Shown: positions 3,388-27,091 of the stretch, piece after piece
How the letters are laid out: every line of letters begins with the position of its first letter
How positions within the stretch are numbered: the stretch's first letter is position 1
From: Candidatus Bathyarchaeota archaeon
GTDB taxonomy: Archaea; Thermoproteota; Bathyarchaeia; Bathyarchaeales; Bathycorpusculaceae
NCBI GenBank assembly: GCA_963733095.1
Contig: CAVTBV010000002.1
Coordinates: 32,001-96,000 of the forward strand
Direction: 5' to 3'
Length of the DNA stretch: 64,000 bases
Position numbers and translations under genes: made by a program
The notes under the pieces: model-generated
What the model was told of the DNA's origin: nothing
Seen by the model: the letters and a program-made list of their open reading frames with translations, nothing else
Database searches by the model: none

Positions 3388-3575
3388 ACTTCTTAGAATT
3401 CAGTTAAGATTAGACTAACCCACAAGGTTTTTGGCTTTTGACCTTTTATGTTAACCTTCTGAAGCTAACAATGGGCGGCTCAATCAATGCATTCTTATCT
3501 AATTTCATATAGAAGAGGCGCTGAATGCTTTTTGGTTTAAACAGAAACTAAATACAAATAAAGTCGTTCAATTTC

Positions 3576-3601
3576 CTACAACTTTGGACGATGAGAAAAT
3601 C
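3576..3601 (+). repeat. Recombination-site-like repeat, 25/26 identical to 4696-4721
   Basis: CTACAACTTTGGACGATGAGAAAATC vs CTATAACTTTGGACGATGAGAAAATC. Confidence 0.75.
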
Positions 3602-3802
3602 TCTAAACTCCACTTAACTCTTTCTCCCCCAAAACATCCCCTTTTTCTCAGTACACTTCGTGACAAACATATCAAACAAGTAGATTGATAATAGCTGAAT
3701 GTTATCTCAGGCTAACAGAAGATTAAGGGGAAGTATTATAACAACTAGAAAATGTACGGAAGGAAATTAAAAAAAGAAAAAATTGGGTTGAATTTTGTCT
3801 TG

Positions 3803-4450
3803 TTAGCTGGGTGTAAACAGCGAGTCTGGAAGCGATGGATTAACGCTGATACCGGAAATTGTCACTGAGTCTCCGCCACCTGAGTAAGTGTAGTCTCCTA
3901 ATCCTGTCCATGCGCCAAGATAGTTTACATATCCTTGCCATAATGTGTTCCATGTGTCGTATTGCATTGTGTACGATGCTGAGACGTCAGTCCATGTTCC
4001 ATCTGAGTACGACCAGGCCTTCTGTTGTGCCGAATTTATTATGAATGCACCTTGAGTTCCTGAAGAGTCTGTGTAATCGATACGCATCATAAAGTTTGCT
4101 GTACCCGCATTTTTGCCATAGTATGTGTATGATCCCTGTGAAACTCCGCCAGAGGTTACTGCAACACTGTATTGTAGACTGCTTGCTCCTGCAATGTCTG
4201 CACCTGTAACACTGCTAGATGGTGCTGGCGTTGAGGATGTTCCAGGAGTAGGTGTTGGAGTTGGTGTTGGTGTTGTTGTAGAATTATTGTTGCTCAAGCC
4301 GCCCATCGCTATGAAGGCTCCCACTACTATAATAACAATCAATATGAGAGCTAGAAGGATTAGCATTAGAGTTTTACGAGATTTCTTTTTGGTTGGTGCT
4401 GGCGGAGGAGAAGGCATTGCCCTAAAATTATTTGAGAACTCCTTTTTCAT
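3803..4450 (-). CDS. N-terminally anchored extracellular protein with Pro/Thr linker
   Basis: Single N-terminal TM helix, TPTPTPTP linker, S/T/G/Y-rich ectodomain. Confidence 0.75.
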   Translation of the reverse strand: MKKEFSNNFRAMPSPPPAPTKKKSRKTLMLILLALILIVIIVVGAFIAMGGLSNNNSTTTPTPTPTPTPGTSSTPAPSSSVTGADIAGASSLQYSVAVTSGGVSQGSYTYYGKNAGTANFMMRIDYTDSSGTQGAFIINSAQQKAWSYSDGTWTDVSASYTMQYDTWNTLWQGYVNYLGAWTGLGDYTYSGGGDSVTISGISVNPSLPDSLFTPS

Positions 4451-4682
4451 ACATTTCCCTAGGTTTTAGTGGATTTGATCGTCGAATAAACCTTTCGGAA
4501 AAAACCGTTGATGATCCTATAGCAAGCGTTAAGTTGATTTTGGGTTAAACCCAAACTTTACCATACCATCAAAGAGGATAAAGAGCGAAAATACTTGGTT
4601 ATCTATAACCCAGAGCTAAGCAAGTAGTCTTTGAGCCTTCAGTTTGATGCAAGATGTGCAATTGTTACGAAAACGTAAATAG

Positions 4683-4727
4683 TTTGGACGATACGCTATA
4701 ACTTTGGACGATGAGAAAATCGAGGTA
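4683..4727 (+). repeat. Tandem recombination-site-like arms and left 17-bp direct repeat (attL candidate)
   Basis: TTTGGACGAT at 4683 and 4703; ATGAGAAAATCGAGGTA (4711-4727) recurs exactly at 10786-10802. Confidence 0.7.
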
Positions 4728-4790
4728 GTATCACTTTATAGTGAGCTTTTTAAGTGTGAAGGGCTAATAATACAGTAAGGAGCCACGAAA

Positions 4791-6203
4791 TTGAATCAAA
4801 AATACGAGCTTTGGCTTAACCAAATTTGTGGAACTGCTGCCTCTGAAAAAAGGTACAAGGAAGACATTGGAAACTTTGAAGAGTGGGCTAAATTAAATCA
4901 CGCTTTAGAAGTTTCAGATATTCCTAAAATGTGGAGAGAAGCCAAATACTCAGACAAGCAAGCTGATAGAGAGCGCTTTCTTGATGAGTTAAAGGACGTT
5001 GTTAGCAACTATTTTGTTTATCTCAAAAAATATGGTTATACTTCTCTTAGTATCAATCGCGCTATGGCAACTGTAATGAGTTTTCTGCATTATTTCGACA
5101 TCCCGTTAAAACCAATCAGAATTCGGCATCCTTTTGTTCAATACCATAATCGGGACATTACTAAGGATGAGATTAGAACTATTTTGAAGAATTCGGGAGT
5201 GAGAAACAGAGCAATTTATCTGGTTCTTTATGAAACGGGTATGAGACCCGCGACTGCTGTTAGTTTACGTTGGAAACATATCAAAGAAGACTTTTTAGCG
5301 AAAAAAGTTCCTATGAAAATTAAGCTAACAAGTGACATTATGAAGTGTGGCGTTAGTGAACGCTTTGTTTTCATTGGGCAGGACGGGTATGATGCTCTTA
5401 GTCTCTATATTAGAAGGCGAGGTTTGCCCTCGGATGATGAGGATTTTGTTTTTGTTACTGAGAAACCTTTCGGTAACGCAATAGGACTTAATTCAATTAG
5501 TCAAGCCTTCAATGTTATTGTTCAAAGGTTGAAGCTTGCAGAGCCAAGAGGACAACTGACTAAGGATGGTAGGAAGAATAAGCCTAAGGAGTTAAGGCTC
5601 TATACTTTGCGGAAGGCTTTTTCGAAGTTTATGGCTGTTAACATTGATAGAACCTTAGTTGAGTATTGGCTTGGGCATACCTCAACTGCAACTCATTATG
5701 TTTCTGAAGATGTGGAGTTTCATAGAGCGCAATATGCTAAGGGCTATTCTGGACTACAATTAGACATTTCTCCATTACCCACAACCATTATGGATGACTT
5801 GAAGAAAAAAGACCAAGAAATCCAATTATCAGCGAGACAAATTCAAGAACTAAAACAAGAATTGTCCAGCCAACAAAAACACATAGCCAAACTCACTACT
5901 TTACTCTATAAAATCGTTGACCCATACGACGAAGATGGAAAACGTCAATTTGAAGAAGAAGCTGAAAGGCAAGCAAACTTAACAAAAGAAGAAAGGAAAA
6001 CGCAAGAAGAAATCGCTGAAAGAACTGAAAAAGCCCTTAATGAATTTAGAGTCCTCTCCGAGGAGGAGAAGGAAAAACGCCGCAAAAGTAATTCACAGAT
6101 AGCACATTTAGATTGGGAAGGGGTTTTTGAATCGTTATCTGAAAGAATTGAACAATTAAAAAAGCTCTATGAAGAAGAAAAGCAAAAAAAGCCGATAAAT
6201 TGA
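4791..6203 (+). CDS. Tyrosine recombinase/integrase with C-terminal coiled coil
   Basis: LYETGMRP (R), LYTLRK (H replaced by Y in HxxR), WLGH, THY catalytic Tyr. Confidence 0.88.
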   Translation: MNQKYELWLNQICGTAASEKRYKEDIGNFEEWAKLNHALEVSDIPKMWREAKYSDKQADRERFLDELKDVVSNYFVYLKKYGYTSLSINRAMATVMSFLHYFDIPLKPIRIRHPFVQYHNRDITKDEIRTILKNSGVRNRAIYLVLYETGMRPATAVSLRWKHIKEDFLAKKVPMKIKLTSDIMKCGVSERFVFIGQDGYDALSLYIRRRGLPSDDEDFVFVTEKPFGNAIGLNSISQAFNVIVQRLKLAEPRGQLTKDGRKNKPKELRLYTLRKAFSKFMAVNIDRTLVEYWLGHTSTATHYVSEDVEFHRAQYAKGYSGLQLDISPLPTTIMDDLKKKDQEIQLSARQIQELKQELSSQQKHIAKLTTLLYKIVDPYDEDGKRQFEEEAERQANLTKEERKTQEEIAERTEKALNEFRVLSEEEKEKRRKSNSQIAHLDWEGVFESLSERIEQLKKLYEEEKQKKPIN

Positions 6204-6574
6204 GGGATGAAATGTTAATTGTAAAATTATGTGAAAAAAATAAGCCTTGCAAACTCTGTTCAGGAGAAAAAAGTGAAATATTGAGGTGCAAGGGCAATGG
6301 AAAGTATTATTTGAATAACTCAGACGAATACCCGATTCAACAAGGGCTGTTTAGAAAACTAAAGAAAAGTCATCATATCTATTTTTGGTACACTTACTTT
6401 TCTGGGCATTCAATTACTGGATTTTGTTTAGACAATGAAGCCCTAAAAATAGTGCAAGAAGAAGGCTACTCTATTGAAGTTGACAAGAAATTAACTCAAG
6501 GTGCAACATATGAACCTAAATTTCAACAACTAAGCTTGAAGGAACGTTGCTTAAGGAGTGAACATTATCTATGA
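6200..6574 (+). CDS. Hypothetical protein, Cys-containing
   Basis: Overlaps both neighbours by 4 nt (translational coupling). Confidence 0.55.
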   Translation: MRDEMLIVKLCEKNKPCKLCSGEKSEILRCKGNGKYYLNNSDEYPIQQGLFRKLKKSHHIYFWYTYFSGHSITGFCLDNEALKIVQEEGYSIEVDKKLTQGATYEPKFQQLSLKERCLRSEHYL

Positions 6575-7104
6575 GTAACCCACAAAGCTCGCAGAAATCA
6601 ATGAGACAATTAGATGCAACTAAACAAAAAATTGAGCACGCGATGATGAATATAGAAAGCGCTGAACAAGAACAGGATGAATATATTTCAAAATTACCCG
6701 ACCATTTTGCGGAAATTTTAAAGAATTACATGAAAGAAAGAGATTTTGATTACGAAAGCACATTTCTTATCCCATTGGCGAGACTAATCGAGGATGAAGG
6801 CAAAATGAGCTTAAACGATGTCATTAGAGAATCTGGTCTTGCAAGACAGACTGTTTATACCAATTTAAAGAATTTAGTTAGGAGTGGTTTTCTATCAAGA
6901 AAAAGTATTGTAACTGGGCGAGGAAGACCAACAATCCTTTACTATAGAACACAGAAACCAATCAATTCCATCAAAGTTGAAAACGCAGTAACAATAACCT
7001 TTCAAAAGCTAAAACATGCGTGCAGATTTGAAAAGGGAGGCTTTTGTAAAGAGAAAAAATGCCATTGCTCCCCAACATTATGTCCAATAATTATAAAGAA
7101 GTGA
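6571..7104 (+). CDS. Winged-HTH transcription regulator with Cys-rich C-terminus
   Basis: SLNDVIRESGLARQTVYTNLKNLVRSGFL...GRGRPTILY; C-terminal CRFEKGGFCKEKKCHCSPTLCP. Confidence 0.75.
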   Translation: MSNPQSSQKSMRQLDATKQKIEHAMMNIESAEQEQDEYISKLPDHFAEILKNYMKERDFDYESTFLIPLARLIEDEGKMSLNDVIRESGLARQTVYTNLKNLVRSGFLSRKSIVTGRGRPTILYYRTQKPINSIKVENAVTITFQKLKHACRFEKGGFCKEKKCHCSPTLCPIIIKK

Positions 7105-7178
7105 TTTAAAAAGAATAATGAATTAAATCTATTTGATTACATCTAAACGGCAATTTTTGAATAACATAAATAAACAAG

Positions 7179-7558
7179 GGGCAGCCTCGCTTCGCTCGGC
7201 TGCCCACGACTTTCTTAATGTATCTTTGAAAGGGGATTACAAAGAACCATGTGTAGTGGTAAGCGAAGAAGCGCGGTCTTGCGAGTCCGCTCTTTTCATT
7301 CTTGCTCGTTGCCCTGTTAGGTGAGGGCAACGCAGTCGAGAACCGCATTGTAAAAAAAATGCTAATCCCCATTGACGACTGCTAATGTTTGTTTTTGAGG
7401 CGTGTTAAAGTCAAAAAGCGGCCAGACAAAAGGTTTATCGTTAGCGCTGTTCAGCTCATCGCCAATCGTAAACCTTTTGCCCTTCTGGTGCTTCGCATCT
7501 GGCGCTTTTTGACACGACTACGGTATGTGAGGGGCGCATATCAGCCCCGCATTGTAAA
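7179..7558. other. Highly structured non-coding element (ncRNA or folded ssDNA origin)
   Basis: Perfect stems at 7179-86/7198-205, 7232-39/7363-70, 7307-15/7324-32, 7410-20/7503-13, 7427-37/7469-79 and 7531-35/7544-48. Confidence 0.6.
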
Positions 7559-7582
7559 CAGACTCTACACTTCACAAAAAAC

Positions 7583-7590
7583 TTATAAAT
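7583..7590 (+). promoter_or_regulatory. TATA box candidate for tupABC
   Basis: A-rich BRE-like run followed by TTATAAAT, about 50 nt upstream of the tupA start; AAGGAG precedes the start. Confidence 0.5.
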
Positions 7591-7636
7591 AGTAACACGA
7601 TAGGAATGACCACGCACAACGACAAGGAGAAATAAC

Positions 7637-8626
7637 GTGAAAGCATGGCAGACTATCTTAATAGTAGCGGTAATAGCCACAATAATGGTAATCGCAGGGA
7701 CTTTTGCATACTACAACTCTCTCCCTACACCAAACCTAAGAATATCCTCAACCACGAGCCTCTGGGATACAGGACTACTGACAGAAATCAAAAACCAATA
7801 TGAATCAAACCACAAAATTGACATCTCAATTCTTCCCCAAGGAACAGGACTCGCATTAGCAAGTGCATCAGCAGGTGACGCCGATGTTGTCCTTGTACAT
7901 GCGCCATCATCAGAATACCCTTACCTATCTAATGGTACTCTAGTTTGCAGGAAAATCGTTGCATGGAATTACTTCACAATAGTTGGACCAAGCTCCGACC
8001 CAGCTCAAATCTCGGGCAAAAATGCCACAGAAGCCCTAAAAAGCATAGTAGCTTACGCCAATAGCCAAACATCGCAGTCAACAATTTGGATTTCCCGTAA
8101 CGATGCCTCAGGAACGTTCTCAAAAGAGCAAAGCCTCTGGAAAAGTGCAGGATTCAATTGGACCCAGATATCCAAAGAACCATGGTATTCAAGCACAGGA
8201 CAAGGCATGGGCGCAACATTAGTAATAACTGACCAAAAAAACGCATACACAGTCTCAGACCTAGGAACATTCCTTCAGTTTTCTAAAAACGGAGCAGTCT
8301 CTTCATCACAAGTTTCACTGGTGCAAGCAGACTACTCTCTACTGAACGTCTATAGCGTTTACGCAGTCAATCCACAAAAAATAAGCGACACTAGCTACAA
8401 TGAAGCCATTAACTTCATAAAATGGTTAGTTTCAGACACAGGACAACAGGTAATAAGCAACTACGGAGCAGGCAACTATACACAAACTCTATTCTCTGGT
8501 GCAGTCCAACCGCTCATAACAGGCAGTCCTCAACCAGATGTCAACTGGATAAAACAGTACGCCTACTTCAATGGTACCGAATGCCCAACACAATTCCAAG
8601 ATGACCACCCCGAACTTTATCCCTAG
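7637..8626 (+). CDS. tupA: Tungstate ABC transporter substrate-binding protein
   Basis: STTSLWDTGLL, GTGLAL, VHAP, SRNDASGT and GQGMGATL motifs of TupA. Confidence 0.9.
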   Translation: MKAWQTILIVAVIATIMVIAGTFAYYNSLPTPNLRISSTTSLWDTGLLTEIKNQYESNHKIDISILPQGTGLALASASAGDADVVLVHAPSSEYPYLSNGTLVCRKIVAWNYFTIVGPSSDPAQISGKNATEALKSIVAYANSQTSQSTIWISRNDASGTFSKEQSLWKSAGFNWTQISKEPWYSSTGQGMGATLVITDQKNAYTVSDLGTFLQFSKNGAVSSSQVSLVQADYSLLNVYSVYAVNPQKISDTSYNEAINFIKWLVSDTGQQVISNYGAGNYTQTLFSGAVQPLITGSPQPDVNWIKQYAYFNGTECPTQFQDDHPELYP

Positions 8627-8637
8627 AGGAAAATCTG

Positions 8638-9369
8638 TTGAATCAAATACTGGACGGAATAATCCAAGCCTTTCAGCTAATATTCGCAGGCGACCCAACA
8701 GTATATGGCGCTGTTTACCGCACCCTCCTTTTTTCTGGTGTAGCAACTATACTTGCAGTATTATGGTCAATGCCAATAGCGATGTTGTTAACTCTGAAGG
8801 ACTTTACTGGTAAATCAATAGTAAAAGGTTTTTTCACAGCAATGATAGGTCTGCCTACTGTAGCCTTAGGCTTAATCCTGTTTCTCACGTTTTCGAAGGC
8901 TGGACCGTTAGGCTTTTTTGGGCTTCTTTATACTCCAGGAGCAATAATGCTTGGTGAAGCCATACTAATCACTCCTTTGATTGTTAGCATAGGAGTTAGC
9001 GCCATTGAAGCTGTCGATCCTGAAATGTTTAATCTTGCAAAAACTCTTGGCGCCAATAGTTCACAAGCGTCAGTAACTATTATGAGAGAAGCCTTGAGTG
9101 GCATTTTATTTTCAAATATAGCTGGTTTCAACCGTGCAATCGCTGAACTCGGTGTAGCTTTGATGGTTGGAGGAAACATTGTAGGTGCAGGTGTACACTC
9201 AACTGATGTCCTGACAACAGATATTTCGACTCTTACTGCTCGAGGTGAGTTTGCGACCGCCATCGCACTTACGGTAATTTTACTCTTGCTAGTTTTTGGC
9301 ATAAATCTGATAGTGTACCTAGCTAGAAATCCAAAAATACTCACATTGTGGGGAAGGATGCCCCAATAA
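8638..9369 (+). CDS. tupB: Tungstate ABC transporter permease
   Basis: GLPTVALGL, GPLG..GLLYT, RAIAELG...VGGNI, VLTT motifs. Confidence 0.88.
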   Translation: MNQILDGIIQAFQLIFAGDPTVYGAVYRTLLFSGVATILAVLWSMPIAMLLTLKDFTGKSIVKGFFTAMIGLPTVALGLILFLTFSKAGPLGFFGLLYTPGAIMLGEAILITPLIVSIGVSAIEAVDPEMFNLAKTLGANSSQASVTIMREALSGILFSNIAGFNRAIAELGVALMVGGNIVGAGVHSTDVLTTDISTLTARGEFATAIALTVILLLLVFGINLIVYLARNPKILTLWGRMPQ

Positions 9370-9373
9370 AACC

Positions 9374-10450
9374 ATGGAATTGCAGAAAATGACGGCACTT
9401 GTAGAATTAACCAATGTAAGTAAACGCTTCAAAGACAGATGTGCACTTGACAACATAAATCTGCAGGTTCAAGAAGGAGAAATTCTTGCTTTGCTTGGAC
9501 CTAACGGTTCAGGAAAAAGTACATTACTTAAAGTTCTTGCTCTTCTGTTGCCGTATGATGGTGGAGAAATAAAATTCCACGGTGTTAAGGTTACGGGAAA
9601 AAATTTGGAACTCTTGCGACTGCAAAGTACTCTCGTCTTCCAAAAGACGTTGCTCCTTAATACCAGCGTGTTCAACAACATAGCTTATGGACTAAAAATT
9701 AGAAAAATGCCTAAAGACAAAATAGCTCAAGAAGTTCACCGAGCCTTGAAACTTGTGAAGTTGGAAGGTTTCGAAAAGCGTCCAGCCAAAAAACTTTCAG
9801 GAGGTGAACAGCAAAGAGTGTCTATGGCAAGGGCATTAGTGCTGCAAACAAAACTGTTGCTACTTGATGAACCCACCGCAAACTTGGATCCAAAAAACGT
9901 AGCGATTATTGAAGAAGTGATTTCTGCAGTTAACCAGCAACTCAAAATAACCGTAGTCATGGCAACACATAACATGTTCCAAGCAGAAAGTTTGCCTACT
10001 CGAATAGCCCTAATAAATGAAGGGAGGATTACAGAAGTCGGTACCCCTAGGAAGGTTTTCGGTAAAATTTCAAAGAACCTTGCAAGTTTTGCTGCTGTTG
10101 ATAACACATTTAGCGGAATAGCGAAAAATTCAAGCGAGGGCATAGCAATTATTGATTTAGGTAATGAGATACTTCTTGAGGCTGCCACCGATAGATGCGG
10201 CGAAATTAAATTTTTTATAAGTCCGCATGACATAATTTTATCTAAAAAGAAAGTGATTTCCAGCGCAAGAAATGTCCTTCAAGGAAAAATTTCCTCGATA
10301 AGCGACTTAAATTCTCTCGTTAAGCTCATTGTGGATGTTGGCAAGCCGTTTACTGTTCAGATAACAAAAAAATCTTTTGCTGAAATGAGCCTAAATCTGG
10401 GGACAGAAATTTACATAACATTTAAAGCTTCAAGCGTACAAATCCTTTAG
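9374..10450 (+). CDS. tupC: Tungstate ABC transporter ATPase with C-terminal TOBE domain
   Basis: GPNGSGKST, LSGGEQQR, LLDEPT; C-terminal SARN...FKASSV TOBE. Confidence 0.88.
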   Translation: MELQKMTALVELTNVSKRFKDRCALDNINLQVQEGEILALLGPNGSGKSTLLKVLALLLPYDGGEIKFHGVKVTGKNLELLRLQSTLVFQKTLLLNTSVFNNIAYGLKIRKMPKDKIAQEVHRALKLVKLEGFEKRPAKKLSGGEQQRVSMARALVLQTKLLLLDEPTANLDPKNVAIIEEVISAVNQQLKITVVMATHNMFQAESLPTRIALINEGRITEVGTPRKVFGKISKNLASFAAVDNTFSGIAKNSSEGIAIIDLGNEILLEAATDRCGEIKFFISPHDIILSKKKVISSARNVLQGKISSISDLNSLVKLIVDVGKPFTVQITKKSFAEMSLNLGTEIYITFKASSVQIL

Positions 10451-10719
10451 AAAACTATTTGATGCTCTCGGACCAACGCAACATATTTATTTTTAGATTA
10501 CTTCTTCCAAAGTTGGTATATCTGGTTAATCAAAAAAGCTATTAATAGTTAAGTCTTCGGGTGATTTCCCCTTTAAAGAAATTTAATAATCAACCGAAAG
10601 CAACACATTTTAACCCTAAAGTCTTGAGCTTAAACCGGTCAAATCTTCAATCTCTCTAAAATGCGTGTTTAAAAATATTTTCCCAATATAGATAATTTAA
10701 ATTCTACTATGTAAGAATC

Positions 10720-10802
10720 AATCAAGTTTATTGTCAAATAATACCCAAACATTGAAATTTGCAGTTTTCAATCTAAGATTGGGCTATGAGAAAATCGAGG
10801 TA
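10720..10802 (+). repeat. Composite site (inverted arm, spacer, right arm), attR candidate; homologous to 20964-21029
   Basis: TTTATTGTCAAATA 10727-40; ATTGGGCTATGAGAAAATCGAGGTA 10778-10802. Confidence 0.65.
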
Positions 10803-11103
10803 CGATGAAGCTGAAAGTGGGGAATAAAAACGCTGGAGGCTTGTGAATACTTTTTCCGCTATTGAGCCCAAAACTAATAATTTCATCACTATATTGTTAG
10901 TGTATCGAGGTACGATGAAGCTGAAAGTGGGGAATAAAAACGCTGGAGGCTTGTGAATACTTTTTCCGCTATTGAGCCCAAAACTAATAATTTCATCACT
11001 ATATTGTTAGTGTATCGAGGTACGATGAAGCGGAAGGCGGGGAATTAGTGCTGGACGCTTGTGAATACTTTTTCCGCTATTGAGTCCACAACTAAGAAAT
11101 TTC
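10794..11103 (+). repeat. 110-bp tandem repeat: two identical copies plus one diverged partial copy
   Basis: ATCGAGGTACGATGAAGC begins at 10794, 10904 and 11014. Confidence 0.92.
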
Positions 11104-12733: not shown

Positions 12734-13393
12734 TTGTCAGAAAGATTCGCTAAAAAGTGGGAAAGTAAACGGGACGATGAGCCCTTCGCAAACCGCATTA
12801 AAGACGCAGTTAAACCACCAGGACCACTAAAACCGCGCCTTGACTTCGCCGTCAGACGCATAGAGCTTCAAGTACAGAAGCTAGACCAAGCAACAGACCG
12901 TTTTGGCCAAAGAGACAAAGCAATTTTCGCAAGAATCGTCGATGCTTACACCAAACACGACAGTGCACGCGCAAACGTATTCGCAAACGAGCTAGCTGAA
13001 GTTAGGAAAATGTCAAAGTTAATTATGAACGCTAAACTTGCTCTCGAGCAAATCACTTTAAGATTACGAACAGTATCCGAACTAGGCGACGTTGTTTCAA
13101 CTCTCGGGCCAGCCGTGGGTGTTCTACGCTCAGTCAAAGCAGGCTTAGTCAGCGTATTTCCAGAAGCAGAAAGTGAACTAGGCGAAATCGGCAATATGCT
13201 AAGCGGAATCATGATTGAAGCAGGCCAAGGAAGCGGAATGACACTTAACTTCGATACAGTCAACGAGGACGCATCAAAGATTCTAACAGAAGCAGCCACA
13301 GTTGCAGAACAAAAGATCAAAGACAAGTTCCCAGATCTGCCCCCCGGAATGCCATCATCCCCAGCTTCTCAAGCAGAGAAAACAACATTCTAA
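12734..13393 (+). CDS. cdvB: ESCRT-III/Snf7 (CdvB-family) protein
   Basis: Snf7 core (ANELAEVRK...LALEQITLRLRTVSELGDV...ILTEA); likely TTG start 12734 after GAGGT. Confidence 0.9.
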   Translation: MSERFAKKWESKRDDEPFANRIKDAVKPPGPLKPRLDFAVRRIELQVQKLDQATDRFGQRDKAIFARIVDAYTKHDSARANVFANELAEVRKMSKLIMNAKLALEQITLRLRTVSELGDVVSTLGPAVGVLRSVKAGLVSVFPEAESELGEIGNMLSGIMIEAGQGSGMTLNFDTVNEDASKILTEAATVAEQKIKDKFPDLPPGMPSSPASQAEKTTF

Positions 13394-13415
13394 AAGAGGA
13401 GGATAAAACACAAAA

Positions 13416-14132
13416 ATGTCTAACTCCAATCTTTTTCTTTCTATTGGTAAGCCAATAAAGAATGAATATGGACGAATAATTGGTAAAGTTGCCTCTTTTG
13501 CATTAACTCCAAACGGAAAATTCGAAGCCGTATACGTAGAGTTTGGCGATGGCCAATTCACAAAGCAACCCATGGAAAGCCTGCGGTTTAACGGCGCCGA
13601 AGTCACATTCATTTCCAAAATCAAAAACCAAGCCAGCGTACTTTGCGACCACATCCCCTTAATCTGGCGCAAAGACGAAGCCTTAAAAGACCTAGTAGAC
13701 AAAAAGAAAATCACATCTGATGTCTACCAAGACCTCCACAACAGCTTCACAAGCGTATTAACCCAACTTAAAAAAGACGCCCAAATCATCATCGACGAGT
13801 CCTCAGTAGAAATAGACCGTTGCGCAGAAGAAATAACCTCCCTAAGCTACGCCATCGCAAACCTAGAAATTGAACATGAAATTGGAAAAATCGACGATGA
13901 AAACTACCGCCAAGCATTCGCACTACTCCAAGAAACCCTCAGACGCGCAACCACAGAAAAAACTGACTTCGAACTCACAAAAAGCAAACTCTCAAGTGTT
14001 CTGTTAGGCGACCAATCACAGAATCAGGTGAAAACCAACAAAGTCTACGCTGAACAAGTATCTAACGCTACAAAGCTCCCCGAGCCCCCAGTGGTTGTTT
14101 ACGTTAAAGAAATAGGAAAAGCTGGAATTTAA
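13416..14132 (+). CDS. cdvA: CdvA-like cell division protein
   Basis: N-terminal PRC-barrel-like IGKPIKNEYGRIIGKV, coiled coil with EHEIGKIDDENY, C-terminal PVVVYV ESCRT-III-binding-like peptide; operon context. Confidence 0.82.
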   Translation: MSNSNLFLSIGKPIKNEYGRIIGKVASFALTPNGKFEAVYVEFGDGQFTKQPMESLRFNGAEVTFISKIKNQASVLCDHIPLIWRKDEALKDLVDKKKITSDVYQDLHNSFTSVLTQLKKDAQIIIDESSVEIDRCAEEITSLSYAIANLEIEHEIGKIDDENYRQAFALLQETLRRATTEKTDFELTKSKLSSVLLGDQSQNQVKTNKVYAEQVSNATKLPEPPVVVYVKEIGKAGI

Positions 14133-14174
14133 TCAGTCTAAACTGTGAAGTGTATAGGTGTGGAGGGCTAAAAA

Positions 14175-15080
14175 ATCAAAAGCTTCACTAACCCAACCCC
14201 TCCCCCTATACGTGAAGTTGCAACAAAATCTATTTGTACCTTAAAAGTCCAGCAGAACAAGCTGGAACAGGCGAGTTTTCGCTTAAAGGAGCGAGACCGC
14301 ACTCTTTTTGAAACCTGCATGTTTGCTTTGAAGAAGAATAACAAAGAAAAAGCCGCAATGTGCGCCACAGAGATTGCGGAAGTTCGAAAACTTGTAAAAT
14401 TTCTCTACAACGTCCAACTAGCAATTGAACGTGTGGTTTTGCGCCTTGAAACCATAAAGGAACTCGGCGATATCGTTGCGGACCTCAAACCCGCGTTAAA
14501 GCTGCTTCAAGGTGTTTCTCAAGAGCTATTCCAAGTATTGCCTGATGTTAGCTCAGAACTAAATACTGTTAACCAAACTATCCAAGATACTCTTCACGCC
14601 ACCAAGCTGACTGCCGATGAGTCGGTTATTCCAGTTGGCAAGAAGACAGAGGCTGGAGAAGAAATCCTAAAAGAAGTCTCCTGTTTTATGGAGCAGAAAC
14701 TGACTGAGACGCTTCCTGAACCGCCTGTAACTGAGTCTGTACAGAAACCAGTGAAGGAGAAAACCCCGATAAGAGAGCTGGTTGCTCTAACCGCGAGTTC
14801 TTCACAGGTATTCTCGAAGAAAACCGTGGAAGAAACCGGTTTTGACCCTGAGAAAACTCTGTTAACCTACAGGAAATCTGAAGTTAAAGAGTTCTCACTT
14901 AAAGTCGAGAAACCCTGTTTGGAAGATGTGTTGATGGAGTATGTTCGTAAAACTAATGGCGAAATTGATTTAAGTCAATGTAGCAATGAACTTCAGACTT
15001 CAAACGAAGAGATTGAACGTGCCCTTGAGAATTTGGGAACCAAAGGCAAAATAAAGATTGAGTTACGTTCGCCTGAATAA
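14175..15080 (+). CDS. cdvB: ESCRT-III/Snf7 (CdvB) protein with C-terminal winged-helix domain
   Basis: Snf7 core; C-terminal LMEYVRKTNGEIDL...IERALENLGTKGKIKI wH; frame open and homologous from 14172 though first ATG is 14319. Confidence 0.85.
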   Translation: MKSFTNPTPPPIREVATKSICTLKVQQNKLEQASFRLKERDRTLFETCMFALKKNNKEKAAMCATEIAEVRKLVKFLYNVQLAIERVVLRLETIKELGDIVADLKPALKLLQGVSQELFQVLPDVSSELNTVNQTIQDTLHATKLTADESVIPVGKKTEAGEEILKEVSCFMEQKLTETLPEPPVTESVQKPVKEKTPIRELVALTASSSQVFSKKTVEETGFDPEKTLLTYRKSEVKEFSLKVEKPCLEDVLMEYVRKTNGEIDLSQCSNELQTSNEEIERALENLGTKGKIKIELRSPE

Positions 15081-15100
15081 GAGAAGGAGAGAGAAAATCG

Positions 15101-16291
15101 ATGAGTGCATCAAACGAACTTGAAAGATCAGCAACAGCTTATGCCCTAGACGCTGTACGCTTGGATAAGCAAGGGCAAAAAGGAAGAGCCATTACCCTCT
15201 ATCAAAAAGCAATAGAAAGCCTCCTGCAACTTGTGCAGCTATACCCCGAGTACGGCTTAAACAAAGTCTACGTGCAACGGGCAATAGCGTATCAAGAGCG
15301 GATTAAAGCGCTTCAGGGAACAGTTTCATCTATTGAAATGAATGAAGCAGCTAACAGCAATGAGGGCGGAGGTGGAGCAACCATGGAGGGAAATGGAAAC
15401 GGCAATGGCACGGGTGGAAAACCAAATGAGGAGCTTGTAATGACGGAGAAGCCGAAGGTTAGTTGGGCCGAAGTAGTTGGGTTGGATACCGCAAAGAAAG
15501 CAGTTAAAGAAGCCATAGTTTACCCTGTGCAACGCCCCGATCTGTTCCCGCTCGGGTGGCCTCGCGGCATCTTGCTGTTTGGTCCGCCTGGATGCGGCAA
15601 AACCCTGCTGGCGGCAGCGGTTGCTACAGAAATTGATGCGAACTTTTACAGTATAGACGCTGCTTCGATTATGTCAAAGTGGCTTGGGGAAGCTGAACAG
15701 AACGTTGCAAAACTGTTCGGGTCAGCACGCAAGTCAGCGACAGATGGTAAACCCGCAATTGTCTTCGTTGACGAGTTGGATTCACTTATGGGTAATCACT
15801 CAAACGAGGTCGGCGGTGAAATCCGCGTTAAAAACCAGTTCCTAAAAGAGATGGATGGAATAGTCGACAAAGGCAAAGCATTGCATGTTTACGTGATTGG
15901 CGCAACAAACAAACCGTGGGATTTGGACTGGGCATTTATCAGAAGGTTCCAGAAACGTATTTTGGTTCCGTTAGCAGACCATAAGACACGGCTGAACATG
16001 TTGAAGCTTTATTCGAGTAACCTGCAAATTGATTCAAACGTGGACTTGCAAGAGTTAGCGCGTCTTGCAGAAGGTTTCTCAGGTAGCGACATACGCGACG
16101 TGTGCCAATCGGCGCAGTTGAGCTTAATCGGGGAATTCTTCGAGTCAGGCCAAGCGATGAATAAAGAAGCCAAACCGCGCGCTTTAACGATGGCTGATTT
16201 CCGGCAAATCTTCGAGGAACGCAAACCATCAGTCTCCCTCGACATGCTCTCGCAATACAACCGATGGTTCGAAGCATTTAAAGCACTATAG
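15101..16291 (+). CDS. cdvC: Vps4/CdvC AAA+ ATPase with MIT domain
   Basis: MIT (AVRLDKQG...AITLYQKAIE), GPPGCGKT, IVFVDELD, ATNKPWDLD, RRFQKR. Confidence 0.93.
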   Translation: MSASNELERSATAYALDAVRLDKQGQKGRAITLYQKAIESLLQLVQLYPEYGLNKVYVQRAIAYQERIKALQGTVSSIEMNEAANSNEGGGGATMEGNGNGNGTGGKPNEELVMTEKPKVSWAEVVGLDTAKKAVKEAIVYPVQRPDLFPLGWPRGILLFGPPGCGKTLLAAAVATEIDANFYSIDAASIMSKWLGEAEQNVAKLFGSARKSATDGKPAIVFVDELDSLMGNHSNEVGGEIRVKNQFLKEMDGIVDKGKALHVYVIGATNKPWDLDWAFIRRFQKRILVPLADHKTRLNMLKLYSSNLQIDSNVDLQELARLAEGFSGSDIRDVCQSAQLSLIGEFFESGQAMNKEAKPRALTMADFRQIFEERKPSVSLDMLSQYNRWFEAFKAL

Positions 16292-16731
16292 GAGGAAAAA
16301 AGAAAAGAAACCGTAAATGGATGGGTAATGTGGAAAGGCTTGGAGAACATTAATTTTTAATCGCTCTCCCTTCTCCCCCTCAAACAATATCTCTAAACCC
16401 CACAAAACAACCCATCCCAAAACATTTTCCTCCGCTCTTTTTTCAGCTTAAGCACTGATTTTCAGCATGTTAATGCACTTGTTTTTAGTTAAACCGACCC
16501 TATCCCTCTTAGAGATAGACCCCTCAATAGTTTCTGCAAAGAAAAAATATTTGGATCTTGATAAGTCCCTAATATGAACACCAAAGCCTTCTGTCTTGCT
16601 TCAAAAACCCCCTAAAATCAGAGCCTAACAACAGCGACGCAAAAAGCAAGACCGTAAAGAAAAATCAAAACTTCCACAACGAAAATTTAAATCCAAGCTT
16701 AACCTATTCGCTAAAAGGTTGACAATTAGCA

Positions 16732-17283
16732 ATGAACTTTTGGAAAGACCTCCCAGCAGGAGATAATCCCCCTGAACTTCTAAATATGGTCATTGAAGTT
16801 ATAAGTGGCTCTCGAGATAAGTATGAGTACAACCTAAAATGGGAAGCCTTCGAACTGGACAGAATTATTCCTTCATCGGTAGTTTTCCCTGTTGAATACG
16901 GGTTTGTTCCTCAGACATGGTTTGACGATGATGACCCCTTAGATATTATGGTTATCAGCCACGCGCCCCTCACGGTAGGTTGCATAGTTAAGGTCTTTGT
17001 CATAGGCGCTCTGATAATCGAAGACGAAGGAGGCTTAGATGCGAAGATTCTTTCTGTGTTAGTCAACGATGCTCGGTCCGAAGGTTACCGCAACATAACC
17101 GACATTCACAGGCACAGATTAATAGAGATTCAAGAGTTCTTTGAAACTTACAAAAGGCTTGAACCCCACAAGTGGGTAAAGGTTAGAGCTTGGAAAAACG
17201 CTGAGGAAGCCTGGGAAATCGTAAGGTATGCCATGGAAAAGTACCGTGAACTAAACGAAAAGCCACCTGCAAACCATAAATGA
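16732..17283 (+). CDS. ppa: Family I inorganic pyrophosphatase
   Basis: KYEY, LDR, YGFVPQT, DDDPLD, FFETYK motifs. Confidence 0.93.
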   Translation: MNFWKDLPAGDNPPELLNMVIEVISGSRDKYEYNLKWEAFELDRIIPSSVVFPVEYGFVPQTWFDDDDPLDIMVISHAPLTVGCIVKVFVIGALIIEDEGGLDAKILSVLVNDARSEGYRNITDIHRHRLIEIQEFFETYKRLEPHKWVKVRAWKNAEEAWEIVRYAMEKYRELNEKPPANHK

Positions 17284-17367
17284 ACATTTTTGTGTTTCAC
17301 CTTTTTTTTAAGATACCTTCAAATCACTCTTTTGTTCGTACTATGCCGAACCATGTTCTTAACTTAG

Positions 17368-17655
17368 CTTTTTCTTTTTTTAGCTGAGCGCGCTGGAAAT
17401 GAAGTCCACTTCTACCTAAACGGCGTTGAACCATTATTCGTTACAGGCTTAACTTACGACAACAACACAAGCATTGATCATGTTTTGGTAAGAGGTGGAA
17501 TAACGCTTATAGAGCAATTTCGTGATACTGGTGCAAGCGAAGCTACTTCAACTGAATATATCGGACCCGTACAGCCTTCAATGGCCGACGCACTATATTT
17601 GACTCCTCAATTAGCGGAAAAACCGCTGAAACCAGCTGGTTTACCAAATACATAG
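17368..17655 (+). pseudogene. Start-less gene fragment
   Basis: Stop-free frame of about 95 codons (AGNEVHFYLNGVEPLFVTG...KPAGLPNT*) with no 5' start codon. Confidence 0.35.
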
Positions 17656-18160
17656 TTAATTATCCTTTTTTATTTTTTTTGCGAAATTTTTTGTCTTTTT
17701 ACCTGGCTTGTATCTTTTCTTAGTCCAAAACGTTTCCGCATTCATTTTGCATTATTTCTATTCTTCCCCTTTCTTTTCACTCGTTTGAGGTGGGTTCATG
17801 GGGCGATTTTAGTTGTTTTCGTATAATCAGAAAGAGCGCTGAACGGACTGCAGCGGCTATTGCTACGGTTGTGCCGATGATGAGTTACGCTTTCGAGGCA
17901 AGCATGGAGGTTTCCAGAAACGGAAGTGAGCCGATAAGGCTGAATAATGCACAGCTGATCCAGCTAACGATATGCCTATCGACAACAAAATAGTGTCGAC
18001 TATGCCTAACTATGAGAAGCTTTTTGATGCGTTTCTTTGGGGCTGTTTCCGCTTCATTCGCGTATTCTTTGATTGTCGCTTTAATTTCATTTAGGATTGG
18101 GGATTATTTCTCTAAGGGACATTTTATCGATATCTTGTTTTGTCTTCACTTGGGTTATTT

Positions 18161-18760
18161 TTAGGGTGCGCTTTTCATTTCTTCCCTAAACGTTTCTTCG
18201 AGCATCTTTTTGTTTATGCCAATTTCCTCTGCTAGACGTTTAACTTGTTTTACGTAGGTGCGGAAGAGGCTTTGGAGGATATCGGCTTTTTCTGTTTCGT
18301 TAAGTTCTTTTTCTTGAGCCATGAGTAGGGCGAACCATTTACCCAGGTTGGTAAGTTGGTAGGTTTTGATCCAGATGGTGCGACCTTCTTTTTCGTTTTT
18401 TTCCATGGATTCATTTAGGACGCCCAGTGCGGTTAGGGTTTTGAGGTTTCCTATGATAGTTTTGTTGCTGTAGTTGAGAGTGTTAACCAGATCTTTTTGG
18501 TAGATGTTCTTGGCGATGCCTTGTTTTAGGCTGAAGCGAAGTATGTCGACGCCTGCTTTGCTGCCGAAGATCGCGGAAAGGATTTTATCTTTTTTTTCTG
18601 TCTTTGGAAGAAATACTACATAGGGATGTAACTTCTCGATCAATGCGCATCCATCTACTTTCTTATCCGCCGACTTTACATTTAAAAATATCCCCCAACC
18701 TCTATACGCCATATAGAATTCGCTGTTGCTCCACATTAAAATCCGTGAATTTAGGCTCAA
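18161..18760 (-). CDS. Winged-HTH domain protein (true start probably downstream)
   Basis: IYQKDLVNTLNYSNKTIIGNLKTLTALGVL...YQLTNLGK. Confidence 0.75.
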   Translation of the reverse strand: MSLNSRILMWSNSEFYMAYRGWGIFLNVKSADKKVDGCALIEKLHPYVVFLPKTEKKDKILSAIFGSKAGVDILRFSLKQGIAKNIYQKDLVNTLNYSNKTIIGNLKTLTALGVLNESMEKNEKEGRTIWIKTYQLTNLGKWFALLMAQEKELNETEKADILQSLFRTYVKQVKRLAEEIGINKKMLEETFREEMKSAP

Positions 18761-18826
18761 TTTTGAAAAAGTGTTTTATACCACAACAACACTCTGAAAA
18801 GTCCACAGAAGACAGAGGGCAATTAC

Positions 18827-19837
18827 ATGAAAAAAATCATAGCTTACATTCTTATTTTTCTCACTGCCTGCTCGATGAGTGCTATTTTGGTTCCTAGCGC
18901 CCACAGCCAAACCGACAACGTCAAAATCGTGAGCTACAGCTACTACCTCGACTCAAGCTATTTCCTCAACGTAGTCGGCGAAGTTCAAAATGTGGGCACC
19001 AACACGGTTGACCCTGTGTTTTTAACAGGTGTCGTAACTACACCGGGTGGTCAGACGCAGAATTCTTATACGCAGGTTTGGGTTTCGGACTTGGTTCCTG
19101 GTCAAAAGGCACCTTTTGATATGATATTTTATCCTTTGCAAAACACTAATGGTTGGTTCCTCGACGAAGTTGGAGACATCAGCTTAACGGTTGCCATAGC
19201 AAACGCAACTTCTAATTATCAATACCCTGACTTAGCCATAACAAGCAGCTCCGGCGCAGTCGGCGACAGCGGCAATTACAGCGGCGCCTACGTCGTTAAC
19301 GGCGTCATAACGAACACGGGTACACAAGCCGCGACCAACTTAACAGTAGTTGGAGCCTTCTTTAACTCAACCGGCGCCGTGGTTGCGGTAGGATACACAA
19401 ATTACCTAACGCCCACCGTTCTTGAGCCTTCTGCGACCCTGCCCTTCCAGATTGCAGCCTTTGACATAAACCAAACAAACGTGCCGGCAGCCATGAAAAT
19501 CACAAGCTACTCACTGTTGGTGCAAACGGAGGAGCCGATTTTGAAGGGGACCGCTCCGCAGGCTACACCATACACGGGTTCGGGCAGCGGAGAGCATAAT
19601 CCAACACCCACCCTTGCACCAGGACAAACTTCACAGAACAGTTCAGGTTCCAATATCCTGGGTGGATCCCAAACAAACACGTTCATCTACGCGGCAGTGC
19701 TTGCAGTAATCATTGTAGTGATTGCGACGGCTTTCCTAGTCTTTAGAAAAAAACGCGGCACCTCCGAATCAGCCGCCCCAGCTGAGAAACCTGCACCTGT
19801 CTATAAGCCAAAGCCTACCCGAAGAAACCGAAAGTAG
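18827..19837 (+). CDS. Surface protein with two FxLYD-like Ig-fold domains and C-terminal TM anchor
   Basis: Signal peptide; VVGEVQNVG...LVPGQKAPF and VNGVITNTG...AFFNSTG repeats; TM followed by RKKR. Confidence 0.75.
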   Translation: MKKIIAYILIFLTACSMSAILVPSAHSQTDNVKIVSYSYYLDSSYFLNVVGEVQNVGTNTVDPVFLTGVVTTPGGQTQNSYTQVWVSDLVPGQKAPFDMIFYPLQNTNGWFLDEVGDISLTVAIANATSNYQYPDLAITSSSGAVGDSGNYSGAYVVNGVITNTGTQAATNLTVVGAFFNSTGAVVAVGYTNYLTPTVLEPSATLPFQIAAFDINQTNVPAAMKITSYSLLVQTEEPILKGTAPQATPYTGSGSGEHNPTPTLAPGQTSQNSSGSNILGGSQTNTFIYAAVLAVIIVVIATAFLVFRKKRGTSESAAPAEKPAPVYKPKPTRRNRK

Positions 19838-19950
19838 CCACCAACCTTCTTTTCAGATTTTTTAATTTTTAAAAAAAACCTTGAAATTGCAGTTAACGAT
19901 TCAGCTCTAATCTTGGTCGATTGCAGAATAGTTAATTATGCTTTAGTTAA

Positions 19951-20847
19951 GTGTGCCAGACTTTAAATATTTCCAGTATACAATGCATAACTATGAGTTT
20001 CAGACCGCAAACAGGTTCACGCCGAGGTGCAGCAGGCAAACAATTCTCTAAAACTGAGCATGCCAAAAAAACAAAGGAAAAAAAGCAACGGACAGGCGCC
20101 AAGTACCTGCGAGAAGAAACCCCGCAGGTTTCTGCACAAGAGGAAGCTGAGAAGACCCTTAATAGCTTGGGCAAGTTGGGGAACCAAATTTTTGCGCTCT
20201 CTCCATTTAGCCAATACTTTGATGATTGGCTTGTTAACCTGCGGCAGGTAGTTTCAGAGTTTGAATCCAACTCAGCCATAATGGCTGATGAACAATTTGT
20301 AAAAGAGCGTGTCCAGATTTTTCTGGATGTTGAAGGAGCGCTTGCCGAGAATAGGCTTGCTGAATCAAACATTACTGCAGAAGCAAAAGCCTTAGCTGAC
20401 AATAACCACCTCATTGTTGAAGCGGACAAAGAATATGCTGAAACAACAAGGGACCGCAGCAATAAGCGGAATTCGGAAGTCCAACGGTTATCCAATAAAA
20501 TCCGTGAACTCGAAGAACTACTATCGGCACAGCAGGAAGTGAAAATCAGCTTCTACAAGTTCAGTGCAAAACGAAAAGCAGCCGAACAGTTGGCTCAGAC
20601 AACCCAGGACCTCAAATCAGCAAAAAATGAGTTAGAAGTAACACTGCAAACCTTTACAGCTGAGCAAGAAAAACTCCATGATAACTACCAGAAACGCAAG
20701 CAGGAACTTAACGAAAACTCTGACCGCCTCCACAAAGAACTTGAGAAACTTGAAACTGACACCTCTACCGAGGCAAGGCAAGCAGCATGCAATGCGTTGG
20801 TTTGTGCCATAAACGCTTTGCTCAAGAGGATGCCACCGACGAGCTGA
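19951..20847 (+). CDS. Coiled-coil hypothetical protein (likely start ATG 19993)
   Basis: Long E/K/Q/L-rich helical ORF. Confidence 0.65.
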   Translation: MCQTLNISSIQCITMSFRPQTGSRRGAAGKQFSKTEHAKKTKEKKQRTGAKYLREETPQVSAQEEAEKTLNSLGKLGNQIFALSPFSQYFDDWLVNLRQVVSEFESNSAIMADEQFVKERVQIFLDVEGALAENRLAESNITAEAKALADNNHLIVEADKEYAETTRDRSNKRNSEVQRLSNKIRELEELLSAQQEVKISFYKFSAKRKAAEQLAQTTQDLKSAKNELEVTLQTFTAEQEKLHDNYQKRKQELNENSDRLHKELEKLETDTSTEARQAACNALVCAINALLKRMPPTS

Positions 20848-20963
20848 GCTTTAAGTGTTTTTGAAACTATATTCTTAGTTAAAAAAAAGACTTAAAATCT
20901 AAAAAATTGAATTGTAATTTGTTTAGATAAAAGTAAACAACTTTCTTGATTTTTTCTAAAAAG

Positions 20964-21029
20964 CAATCGATTTATTGTCAAATAGACATAGTTATTGACA
21001 CATTCCAGATTTCATTTGGGATACGAGAA
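20964..21029 (+). repeat. Composite site homologous to 10720-10792, at left edge of island 2
   Basis: TTTATTGTCAAATA 20971-84; similar spacer ATTGAC...CAGATTTCA; TTTGGGATACGAGAA 21015-29. Confidence 0.6.
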
Positions 21030-27089: not shown

Positions 27090-27091
27090 TA

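Follow-up and report, generated by a model that had tools for sequence, protein, structure and literature searches.

Why does one short motif recur, always in the same orientation, around the tyrosine recombinase genes of an archaeal chromosome? The question is raised by a 64,000-nucleotide stretch of the genome of a Candidatus Bathyarchaeota archaeon (assembly GCA_963733095.1, contig CAVTBV010000002.1, positions 32,001 to 96,000), called the window below. A preliminary description of this window had proposed a dispersed family of recombination sites, made of inverted left and right arms, through which two integrases would capture or shuffle cargo genes. The analysis reported here leads to another answer. 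What had been read as the right arm is the beginning of a box C/D-type small RNA (sRNA) gene: one strand of its terminal stem, its C box and the first part of its D' guide. In all likelihood, a mobile element has inserted into this gene, bringing with it a spare copy of the RNA, by site-specific integration and not by means of an integron.

The repeated motif at a single locus

Every string quoted for the motif lies where it had been placed, on the + strand and outside the long open reading frames (ORFs). The right-arm copies are the following:
3583 and 4703, + strand: TTTGGACGATGAGAAAATC
4683, + strand: TTTGGACGAT, partial
10778, + strand: ATTGGGCTATGAGAAAATC
21015, + strand: TTTGGGATACGAGAA

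These copies are real and non-random. The consensus TTTGGRCKAYGAGAA, with at most two mismatches, is matched 7 times in the window against 1.02 expected, and none of 100 shuffles reaches 7. The copies belong to four sites, named A to D from left to right. Sites A (3576-3601) and B (4696-4721) have 26 nt in common with a single mismatch, and B is identical to C (10786-10802) over the 17 nt ATGAGAAAATCGAGGTA. Further upstream, TTTATTGTCAAATA is exact at both 10727 and 20971, GTCGTTCAA is present at 3565 and TGATCGTCGAATA at 4476. The motif is also restricted to this locus. A scan of the whole assembly (2.84 Mb, 16 contigs) found ATGAGAAAATC in its motif context at sites A, B and C only, and the covariance model of the RNA described below matches the genome only at 10776-11095 and at the site B fragment. 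With its strong copies thus confined, the motif does not constitute a dispersed repeat family. Nor are the left arms inverted copies of the right one: they derive from upstream regions of two kinds, and the 25 longest of 50 repeats include no inverted left/right arm pair.

A conserved box C/D-type RNA beside the cell-division genes

Positions 1-16300 of the window were compared by blastn with 30 relatives; 18 loci were retrieved and their sRNA copies aligned. Throughout the genus the segment 10779-10920 keeps 80-95% identity, in most cases next to cdvABC, between flanks that are variable. The sRNA gene, about 92 nt long, is normally present in single copy upstream of this cdv cell-division cluster, with the following layout:
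5' part: terminal stem TTGGAC/GTCCA or TTGGGC/GCCCA; C-box-like RUGAGR; invariant AAUCGAGGUACG; D'-like NYGA
3' part: hairpin; C'-like RUGAR; invariant CUUUUUCCGCUA; D-like YYGA

The pairing was assessed in two ways. With a structure specified by hand, 88.2% of the cells are paired in an alignment of 17 sequences, compared with 26-44% when the 3' partners are slid. With a covariance model, built to align 50 copies from several families, the figure is 89.4%, compared with 26-42%. In this second alignment, changes on both sides affect 11 of the 16 pairs, and none of 500 shuffles reaches the observed values. The stem pair at columns 8/111, for instance, is A-U in 38 of the 50 sequences and G-C in 7, and the pair flanking the kink turn (k-turn; columns 16/106) is G-C in 32 and A-U in 13. 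Since the motif pairs, with compensatory changes, with a partner located 80 nt downstream, it must lie inside an RNA.

The identity of this RNA is best seen in its distant members, which possess canonical RUGAUGA, CUGA, AUGAU and CUGA boxes with a 12-nt spacing, as in locus L191 (GAUGAUGA-12 nt-CUGA-loop-AUGAUU-guide-CUGA). The distance from the C box to D' is 12 nt in every row read; D' is CUGA in the distant members and C' is AUGAU or AUGAC. An H/ACA reading, prompted by an ANA 3' of the stem, was dropped because of these canonical C/D/C'/D' boxes. The covariance model matches 62 of the 141 genomes of the order, mostly with one copy per genome; by group, matches were obtained in 12/12 genomes of the genus, 29/31 of the family and 25/31 of a second family. 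Rfam produced 0 matches at gathering score in the whole window, and its best match to an intact copy from a relative was sR44 (E 3.2, 10.5 bits for a gathering score of 45). The matches ranked by E-value, namely sR44 (E 3.2), NsiR4 (E 6.5) and SNORA53 (E 7.5), were rejected as being at chance level. Judged by sequence and predicted fold, the sRNA is a new box C/D-type family with no Rfam match. The proteins fibrillarin (PF01269, 321.5 bits) and Nop5 (PF01798, 237 bits) are encoded by adjacent genes on contig C5.

Two observations concern other places. At 62641-62722 of the window, a weak covariance-model match with C/D-like ends (16.1 bits, E 0.08) may be an unrelated box C/D-type sRNA candidate. 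In the relative G001, the sRNA (locus L007, G001:C3, 1072-1706) does not stand beside cdv: it lies 40 nt downstream of an AsnC-like gene, the 150 nt upstream of it are 80% identical to window 10629-10778, and the cdv-adjacent site (L008) contains no sRNA.

Predicted targets in 23S ribosomal RNA

The guides were matched to the ribosomal RNA (rRNA) of two complete relatives, because the 23S gene is absent from this assembly. In both relatives, 10 bp of the D' guide find a perfect complement in 23S rRNA, a match equalled by 17 of 1000 shuffled guides. The D guide forms 11 bp including one G-U, equalled by 61 of 1000. Both matches are located near the peptidyl-transferase centre. Counted upstream from D', the fifth guide position faces a nucleotide that aligns with E. 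coli C2498 (rrlH alignment), and the D-guide target falls at about 2055 in E. coli rrlH numbering. The RNA, presumably expressed, would act as a 2'-O-methylation guide for 23S rRNA at the equivalent of C2498 and at about 2055; on the basis of these predicted targets, it probably guides the methylation of the ribosome.

The empty site and the integrative element

Four metagenome DNA runs were examined over 3400-11300, as assembled contigs with covering shares of 0.06-0.10. A contig of 769 nt from run X1 joins 4585-4718 at 0 mismatches directly to 11014-11300 at 1 mismatch; it skips exactly 6,295 bp, with 9 letters common at the joint. The skipped DNA was not found by blastn in any of the 30 relatives, and in five of them (G011, G004, G016, G003 and G010) the left flank of the B type runs directly into the RNA body. 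The empty site is the left part of site B followed by the RNA body called u3 below, and the inserted DNA is 4728-11022. The unit made of an integrase and tupABC, first taken for a cassette, stands on its own as an integrative element of 6.3 kb: it encodes its integrase, and a metagenome contig of near-identical sequence shows the site without it. Its parts, including the left and right attachment (att) sites, attL and attR, are arranged as follows:
4696-4727, + strand: site B, attL; severed 5' end of the host sRNA gene, first 25 nt, with stem strand TTTGGAC (4703-4709), C box GATGAGAA and 9-bp crossover core ATCGAGGTA (4719-4727)
4728-11022, + strand: inserted element, 6,295 bp (4728-11013 + core; core to core 4719-11013)
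4737-4744, + strand: TATAGTGA, left (P') arm 9 nt past the core and inverted partner of the right-arm CACTATA; candidate integrase-binding site
4791-6203, + strand: tyrosine recombinase, 470 aa, TTG start (Pfam Phage_integrase PF00589, E 3.8e-12)
6200-6574, + strand: small gene, 124 aa
6571-7104, + strand: small gene, winged-helix regulator
7106-7372, - strand: small gene, 88 aa
7637-10450, + strand: cargo, tungstate/molybdate-type ABC transporter, TupA-/TupB-/WtpC-like
10742-10778, + strand: type II upstream block ccaaacattgaaattt..., presumed promoter of the element-borne sRNA
10779-10871, + strand: site C, complete element-borne sRNA (u1), covariance model 113.9 bits; stem TTGGGC/GCCCAA, C box 10786-10792, D' guide 10793-10804, D' 10805-10808, C' ~10843-10846, D guide 10850-10861, D box 10862-10865
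10904-11013, + strand: u2, exact 110-bp tandem duplicate of 10794-10903, 77.7 bits
11014-11092, + strand: attR core (11014-11022), then orphaned host sRNA body (u3)

The two ends of the element carry identical direct repeats of ATCGAGGTA, at 4719-4727 and 11014-11022. Past this core the relatives continue with ...ATCGAGGTACGATGAAG, and the window diverges after 4727. The terminal stems agree with the partition between host and element: the 3' stem strand GTCCA of u3 (11084-11088) pairs with the TGGAC of site B and not with the TGGGC of site C, which pairs with the GCCCA of u1. The score of u3 is 70.1 bits, owing to the missing stem strand and C box. It follows from the empty-site partition that the host gene is split inside its D' guide, is not rebuilt at the junction and is supplied with a whole replacement. 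The site at 10778, which had been regarded as a recombination junction, is the 5' end of the complete RNA gene inside the inserted element. A first model, in which attR was placed at site C on account of the 17-nt identity between B and C, was replaced because the X1 contig joins B to 11014. A tRNA target was also rejected: the tRNA scan of the window found 0 genes, so that the insertion target is not a tRNA gene.

According to the mechanism proposed, the 6,295-bp element would recombine with the host sRNA gene within the D' guide, at the core ATCGAGGTA of 9 bp. What remains of the host gene on the left, its promoter, stem strand and C box, would form attL (site B), the host RNA body without its C box would become attR (11014-11092), and the replacement would be the complete sRNA of the element with its own upstream block (site C). 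This type II block is conserved 5' of the sRNA at loci L005, L006, L007, L013, L014 and L018, and would function as a promoter.

The small genes at 6200-7372 gave profile matches to HTH_24 and, weakly, to Lrs14. The transporter matches NCBIfam TupA (173.8 bits), TupB (161 bits) and WtpC (299.7 bits), all under the equivalog cut-offs, and has Pfam matches too. Three tandem units of about 110 nt directly follow site C (10794-11120), the first two being identical. The second, u2, lacks the stem strand and the C box; it comprises the sRNA body and a spacer of 32 nt with CACTATA (10997-11003; first copy 10887-10893). The core occurs three times on this right side, at 10794, 10904 and 11014, and the perfect 110-bp tandem duplication (10794-11013) begins exactly at the recombination core; it could have arisen from recombination between neighbouring cores, or from slippage.

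The integrase and its putative attachment sites

The integrase gene at 4791 starts 64 nt after the core. A metagenome contig, L065, encodes a homologue with 53% identity over the alignment (55% in the best segment), in which R152, R274, H296 and Y303 are invariant. In L065, a truncated sRNA 5' end, TTGGGACAATGAGGAAATCGAGG, is found about 45 nt upstream of the integrase start codon (65 nt from the core start). The RNA is cut at the same place as in site B, and TATAGTGA follows 9 nt after the core, as in the window. This integrase family is therefore linked to the truncated end of the sRNA. Across 301 genomes of the class, the best match to the 4791 integrase has 34% identity. A more distant homologue (L036, G024:C29:69862-70962; 31% identity) has one in-frame TGA and lies about 13 kb from a cdv cluster. 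A motif scan of viral contigs, with the model run on 80 of 106 stretches, returned two near-identical weak matches of 21 bits (L068/L145), judged to be due to chance since they cover the seeded 5' part only.

At a fixed spacing on either side of the core stand the inverted motifs CAnTATA and TATAGTG; of the 10 junctions read that have no canonical C box, 8 show CAnTATA 10 nt before the core. When the arms are joined by eye, the core of attP, the att site of the free element, becomes AGTGTATC-GAGGTA-GTATCACT, which may be an 8-6-8 site. The element's attP would read …TTAGTGT-ATCGAGGTA-GTATCAC…, the attB of the host would read …GAGAAA-ATCGAGGTA-CGATGAAG… and the predicted circle junction is ...TTGTTAGTGT-ATCGAGGTA-GTATCACTTTATAGTGA.... 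Exact att sequences are thereby given for the element; catalysis by the 4791 integrase, like the exact positions of strand exchange, is predicted.

Probable older scars at a proposed hot spot of integration

The left side of the locus carries what appear to be the traces of earlier events:
3555-3601, + strand: site A, about 21 nt of type I upstream region followed by the first 19 nt of the sRNA, cut after AAAATC
3602-4695, no strand assigned: relic unit A-B, with an ORF at 3803-4450 (minus strand, 215 aa), flanked by a 26-nt direct repeat
4613-4682, + strand: integrase 3'-end remnant of the 29081 kind; cgaaaacgtaaatag encodes ...RKRK-stop

The sRNA part of site A comprises the 5' strand of the terminal stem and the C box, and 3555-3601 aligns at 79-83% with the type I upstream region and sRNA start of loci L002, L003 and L009. 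The product of ORF 3803-4450 belongs to no Pfam or NCBIfam family. The remnant and site B (4613-4727) are 88% identical to L001:1298-1414. In this relative (G011), positions 1250-1366, directly upstream of a type I sRNA, encode a stretch of 39 aa sharing 56% identity with the C-terminal end of the 29081 integrase (E 3e-11). Upstream of each type I copy read stand the last codons of the remnant, either unchanged or in variants that can still be recognised. The type I upstream block carries 'aaacgtaaataag' and the type II block 'aacattgaaatt', about 25-40 nt before the motif. In G010, a type I 5' end is found on a body with the GCCCA stem strand, and the mismatched stem that results is as expected from a swapping of 5' ends. 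Site A, the 1.1-kb A-B interval and the remnant would be scars of earlier integrations by another integrase lineage; such repeated integration at one gene would make the locus an accretion hot spot of variable content, located beside the cell-division genes.

In the relatives, the gene content upstream of the RNA changes from one genome to another, with isochorismatase, PIN, IS transposase, Tat, multicopper oxidase, a 1,879-aa PKD protein and ABC transporters; no integrase was found among the 61 ORFs scanned in these intervals. A search for further B-like scars in G016, G013, G007, G008 and G012 gave known copies only. Three loci possess an interval of 1.5-1.9 kb between two sRNA-derived copies: L003 (G016, 5572-7598), L009 (G010, 5029-7006) and L014 (G007, 8833-10552). 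These intervals encode a DUF4209 protein in G016, a DUF998 protein and a 114-aa ORF without family in G010, and a metallo-beta-lactamase-fold protein in G007. Their left copy consists of a spacer with CAnTATA, the ATCGAGGTA core and a partial body in G016 and G007, and of a complete sRNA in G010. No integrase of more than 30% identity was detected in G016 or G007, and none at all in G010. The three intervals look like decayed insertions at the same core. In the window itself, the segment 270-4612 contains a block running from a GT2 glycosyltransferase (704-2695) to two small Lrp/AsnC ligand-domain genes (2785-3012 and 3151-3387). This block is absent at this place in G011, G004 and G003 and is scattered to other contigs elsewhere, which indicates that the variable region reaches well to the left of site A.

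Site D and island 2

The fourth site lies close to a second insertion, termed island 2:
20964-21029, + strand: site D, possible decayed type II upstream block with stem strand and C box
21201-21211, + strand: left repeat of island 2, GTTTTATATAG, 11-bp direct repeat
29081-30304, + strand: island 2 tyrosine recombinase, 407 aa, at the right end (Pfam Phage_integrase, E 2.5e-20)
30343-30353, + strand: right repeat of island 2, 39 nt past the integrase stop, upstream of an HMGL-like gene

Local alignment of site D with 10715-10800 gives a score of 25, for a null of 9.7 +/- 1.9; 1 of 6,000 random AT-rich segments reaches 25, a rate at which a few such matches are expected by chance genome-wide. 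No RNA body was found after site D with the covariance model. Site D is possibly a relic, and at most that. On contig C7 of G000 (23081-23152), a borderline blastn match to the type II block (70% over 74 nt, E 0.021) may likewise be another relic or chance. Site D was also tried as the attL of island 2, and rejected in view of the unrelated 11-bp repeat of this island. The empty site of island 2, ...gatagatgcaGTTTTATATAGgtattagc..., is contiguous in the 6 relatives whose letters were read, all of which share GTTTTATATAG. At all 8 loci compared from relatives, the parts matching the two flanks (ending at ~21209-21214 and starting at 30343/30344) overlap by 9-13 nt. This overlap, together with the 11-bp repeat, delimits island 2 as 21212-30342. 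Its left edge, for which the motif at 21015 had been proposed, is at 21211/21212, about 190 bp further to the right.

With a length of 9.1 kb, island 2 has inserted cleanly upstream of the HMGL-like gene, which is of the homocitrate/isopropylmalate-synthase type. It contains three paralogous genes with a common 100-nt 3' block (22736, 23554 and 24419), a NosD/beta-helix protein, a TFIIE-alpha-like winged helix-turn-helix (wHTH) protein and the integrase at 29081.

Alternative explanations

Several results weigh against the insertion of a mobile element into the sRNA gene as outlined above. The 9-bp core recurs on the right side, and a low-depth contig of run X2 joins 4718 to 10904, so that the original junction was possibly at another copy. 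Run X1 provided assembled contigs only, in which integration and excision are indistinguishable. The 150-nt upstream block of the element's right arm is 80% identical to a chromosomal region of G001; the element may have captured host DNA, or its history may be more complex. L065 is the only independent integrase context found in the metagenome scan, two scans of genome contigs and one of viral contigs found no close relative of the 4791 integrase, and the 19 distant homologue loci (<=34% identity) have no sRNA. At site A the cut is 6 nt earlier than at B and no element arm can be recognised; its origin as a scar is conjectural. Finally, the match of the D guide to 23S rRNA is not significant by itself.

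One alternative is a history without site-specific recombination, in which sRNA paralogues were duplicated in tandem and recombined by homology or illegitimately, with the integrase as a bystander. Tandem or partial sRNA copies do exist in several relatives without a nearby integrase, u1 and u2 form a perfect 110-bp tandem duplication, and the right arm resembles G001 chromosomal sequence. In the X1 contig, however, the joint coincides exactly with a 9-bp identity, a length at which homologous recombination is not efficient. The junction lies right beside the integrase gene, the 53%-identical integrase of L065 adjoins this RNA where it is truncated at the same point and has TATAGTGA as its arm motif too, and the inverted CAnTATA/TATAGTG motifs flank the core at their fixed spacing. 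A bystander role of the integrase is accordingly improbable. The motif could also be considered as a promoter or a transcription-factor site at fixed positions upstream of genes, since the conserved AT-rich type I and II blocks, 25-40 nt upstream, are probably promoter elements of the sRNA. The motif itself nevertheless pairs with its 3' partner, 80 nt downstream, with compensatory changes; it does not recur genome-wide, and sites A and B precede unrelated sequence, with no gene in fixed register. Such a role is hardly credible.

An integron-like or Xer/pdif-like capture system, in which a new family of sites would let two integrases shuffle cassettes, was the explanation first advanced. Part of it stands: the repeats are tied to tyrosine-recombinase activity, and they bracket, in the same orientation, two mobile units (3602-4695 and the integrase and transporter unit) beside a tyrosine recombinase. 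The G016, G010 and G007 intervals, each a single annotated gene between repeated sRNA-derived copies, point in the same direction. The capture system itself does not stand. There is no family of sites, the strong copies being found at this locus only, and the site belongs to a conserved gene for a structured RNA. The large 'cassette' is an entire element, which encodes its integrase among at least 7 genes and for which a clean empty site is known; in the small unit, the ORF runs on the other strand. The 11-bp repeat of island 2 is unrelated, and no integrase above 30% identity occurs in the relatives that carry single-gene units. The integron integrase profile TIGR02249 scores 60.5 bits with the 29081 protein, for a cut-off of 265, and does not match the 4791 protein; NF011946 scores 32.7 for a cut-off of 435, and XerA_Arch 49.2 (4791) and 101.1 bits (29081) for a cut-off of 220. 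Pairs of attC-type cores (RYYYAAC ... GTTRRRY), scanned over 3000-22000 on both strands with 200 shuffles, are at background, with 6 observed for 3.9 +/- 3.1 and 57/200 shuffles reaching at least the observed number. None of these pairs is at sites A, B, C or D. Gene capture of this kind is therefore a most improbable explanation, and site-specific integration into the sRNA gene is retained.

Possible replacement of the guide gene

A more general proposition can be put forward tentatively, on balance with a little more doubt than confidence: elements with integrases of this family may be gene-replacing. They would cut the single-copy guide gene of the host inside one of its guides, let the old body decay and install their own allele and promoter, the host becoming reliant on the copy of the element. 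If true, repeated replacement by at least two integrase lineages would explain the two interchangeable upstream types and the hybrid allele of G010 with its mismatched stem. The decaying second copies downstream of the sRNA in G016, G013, G007 and G008 would be accounted for as well, together with the 1.5-1.9-kb intervals of G016, G010 and G007. The sRNA locus by cdv would then be a natural landing pad for gene acquisition in these archaea.

Comparison with known systems

Archaeal box C/D sRNAs share with this RNA a terminal stem, C/D boxes forming a k-turn, internal D'/C' boxes and two guides of about 12 nt, together with predicted rRNA complementarity near the peptidyl-transferase centre and fibrillarin/Nop5 in the genome. 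The nearest Rfam model is sR44 (RF01129), which is sub-threshold. In contrast to them, the boxes are degenerate in this genus (C = RUGAGR, D = YYGA), and a hairpin of 25-30 nt between D' and C' brings the length to ~92 nt instead of ~55-75 nt. The predicted D' target has a counterpart in E. coli, where C2498 of 23S rRNA is 2'-O-methylated (Cm2498) by RlmM. RlmM is a protein-only enzyme in bacteria, whereas the aligned position would be specified here by a guide RNA.

Mobile integrons (IntI, attI, attC) resemble this locus by a tyrosine recombinase beside units bracketed by repeats in the same orientation. They differ from it in that no IntI-type integrase, no attC-like folded sites and no promoterless single-ORF cassettes are present here, and the repeated 'site' is a fragment of an RNA gene. 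With Xer/dif and pdif, the likeness is limited to the putative attP core, which resembles two short inverted arms around a 6-bp spacer. The integrases are far under the XerA cut-off, the repeats are direct gene fragments and not alternating dif-like sites, and there is no chromosome-dimer context. The apparent family of recombination sites resolves instead into a guide RNA family and an integrative element that uses the RNA gene as its att site.

tRNA genes are textbook targets of integration. In the open-access text searched, no description was found of this RNA, or of a methylation-guide sRNA gene used as attB; some archaeal 'intergenic' integration sites may consequently hide unannotated RNA genes. 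In a review of archaeal tyrosine recombinases (PMC8371274), a term search found no 'sRNA', 'ncRNA' or 'non-coding RNA', and a C/D review (PMC7994747) gave no 'Thaumarchae' or 'Nitroso'. Ammonia-oxidising and other archaea harbor integrative elements whose tyrosine recombinases target tRNA genes (PMC6563490, PMC8371274). The targets in the survey of these elements are 39 tRNA genes, 15 intergenic sites and 14 protein genes (Krupovic et al. 2019, PMC6563490), and one of the 15 'intergenic' targets may be this RNA. Its att sites have a median of 17 bp, down to 8 bp, tandem arrays occur, and among tRNA-gene targets integration at the 5' end is much rarer than in the 3' region (PMC6563490).

The element described here has much in common with such elements: a tyrosine recombinase at its edge, short direct repeats as att sites, a conserved small RNA gene as target, tandem stacking at one site and a metabolic or transporter cargo. 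It departs from them in that its target is a box C/D-type sRNA gene and not a tRNA gene, and in that the crossover is near the 5' end of the gene. Moreover, the interrupted gene is not rebuilt at the junction: the element carries instead a second, whole copy together with its upstream block.

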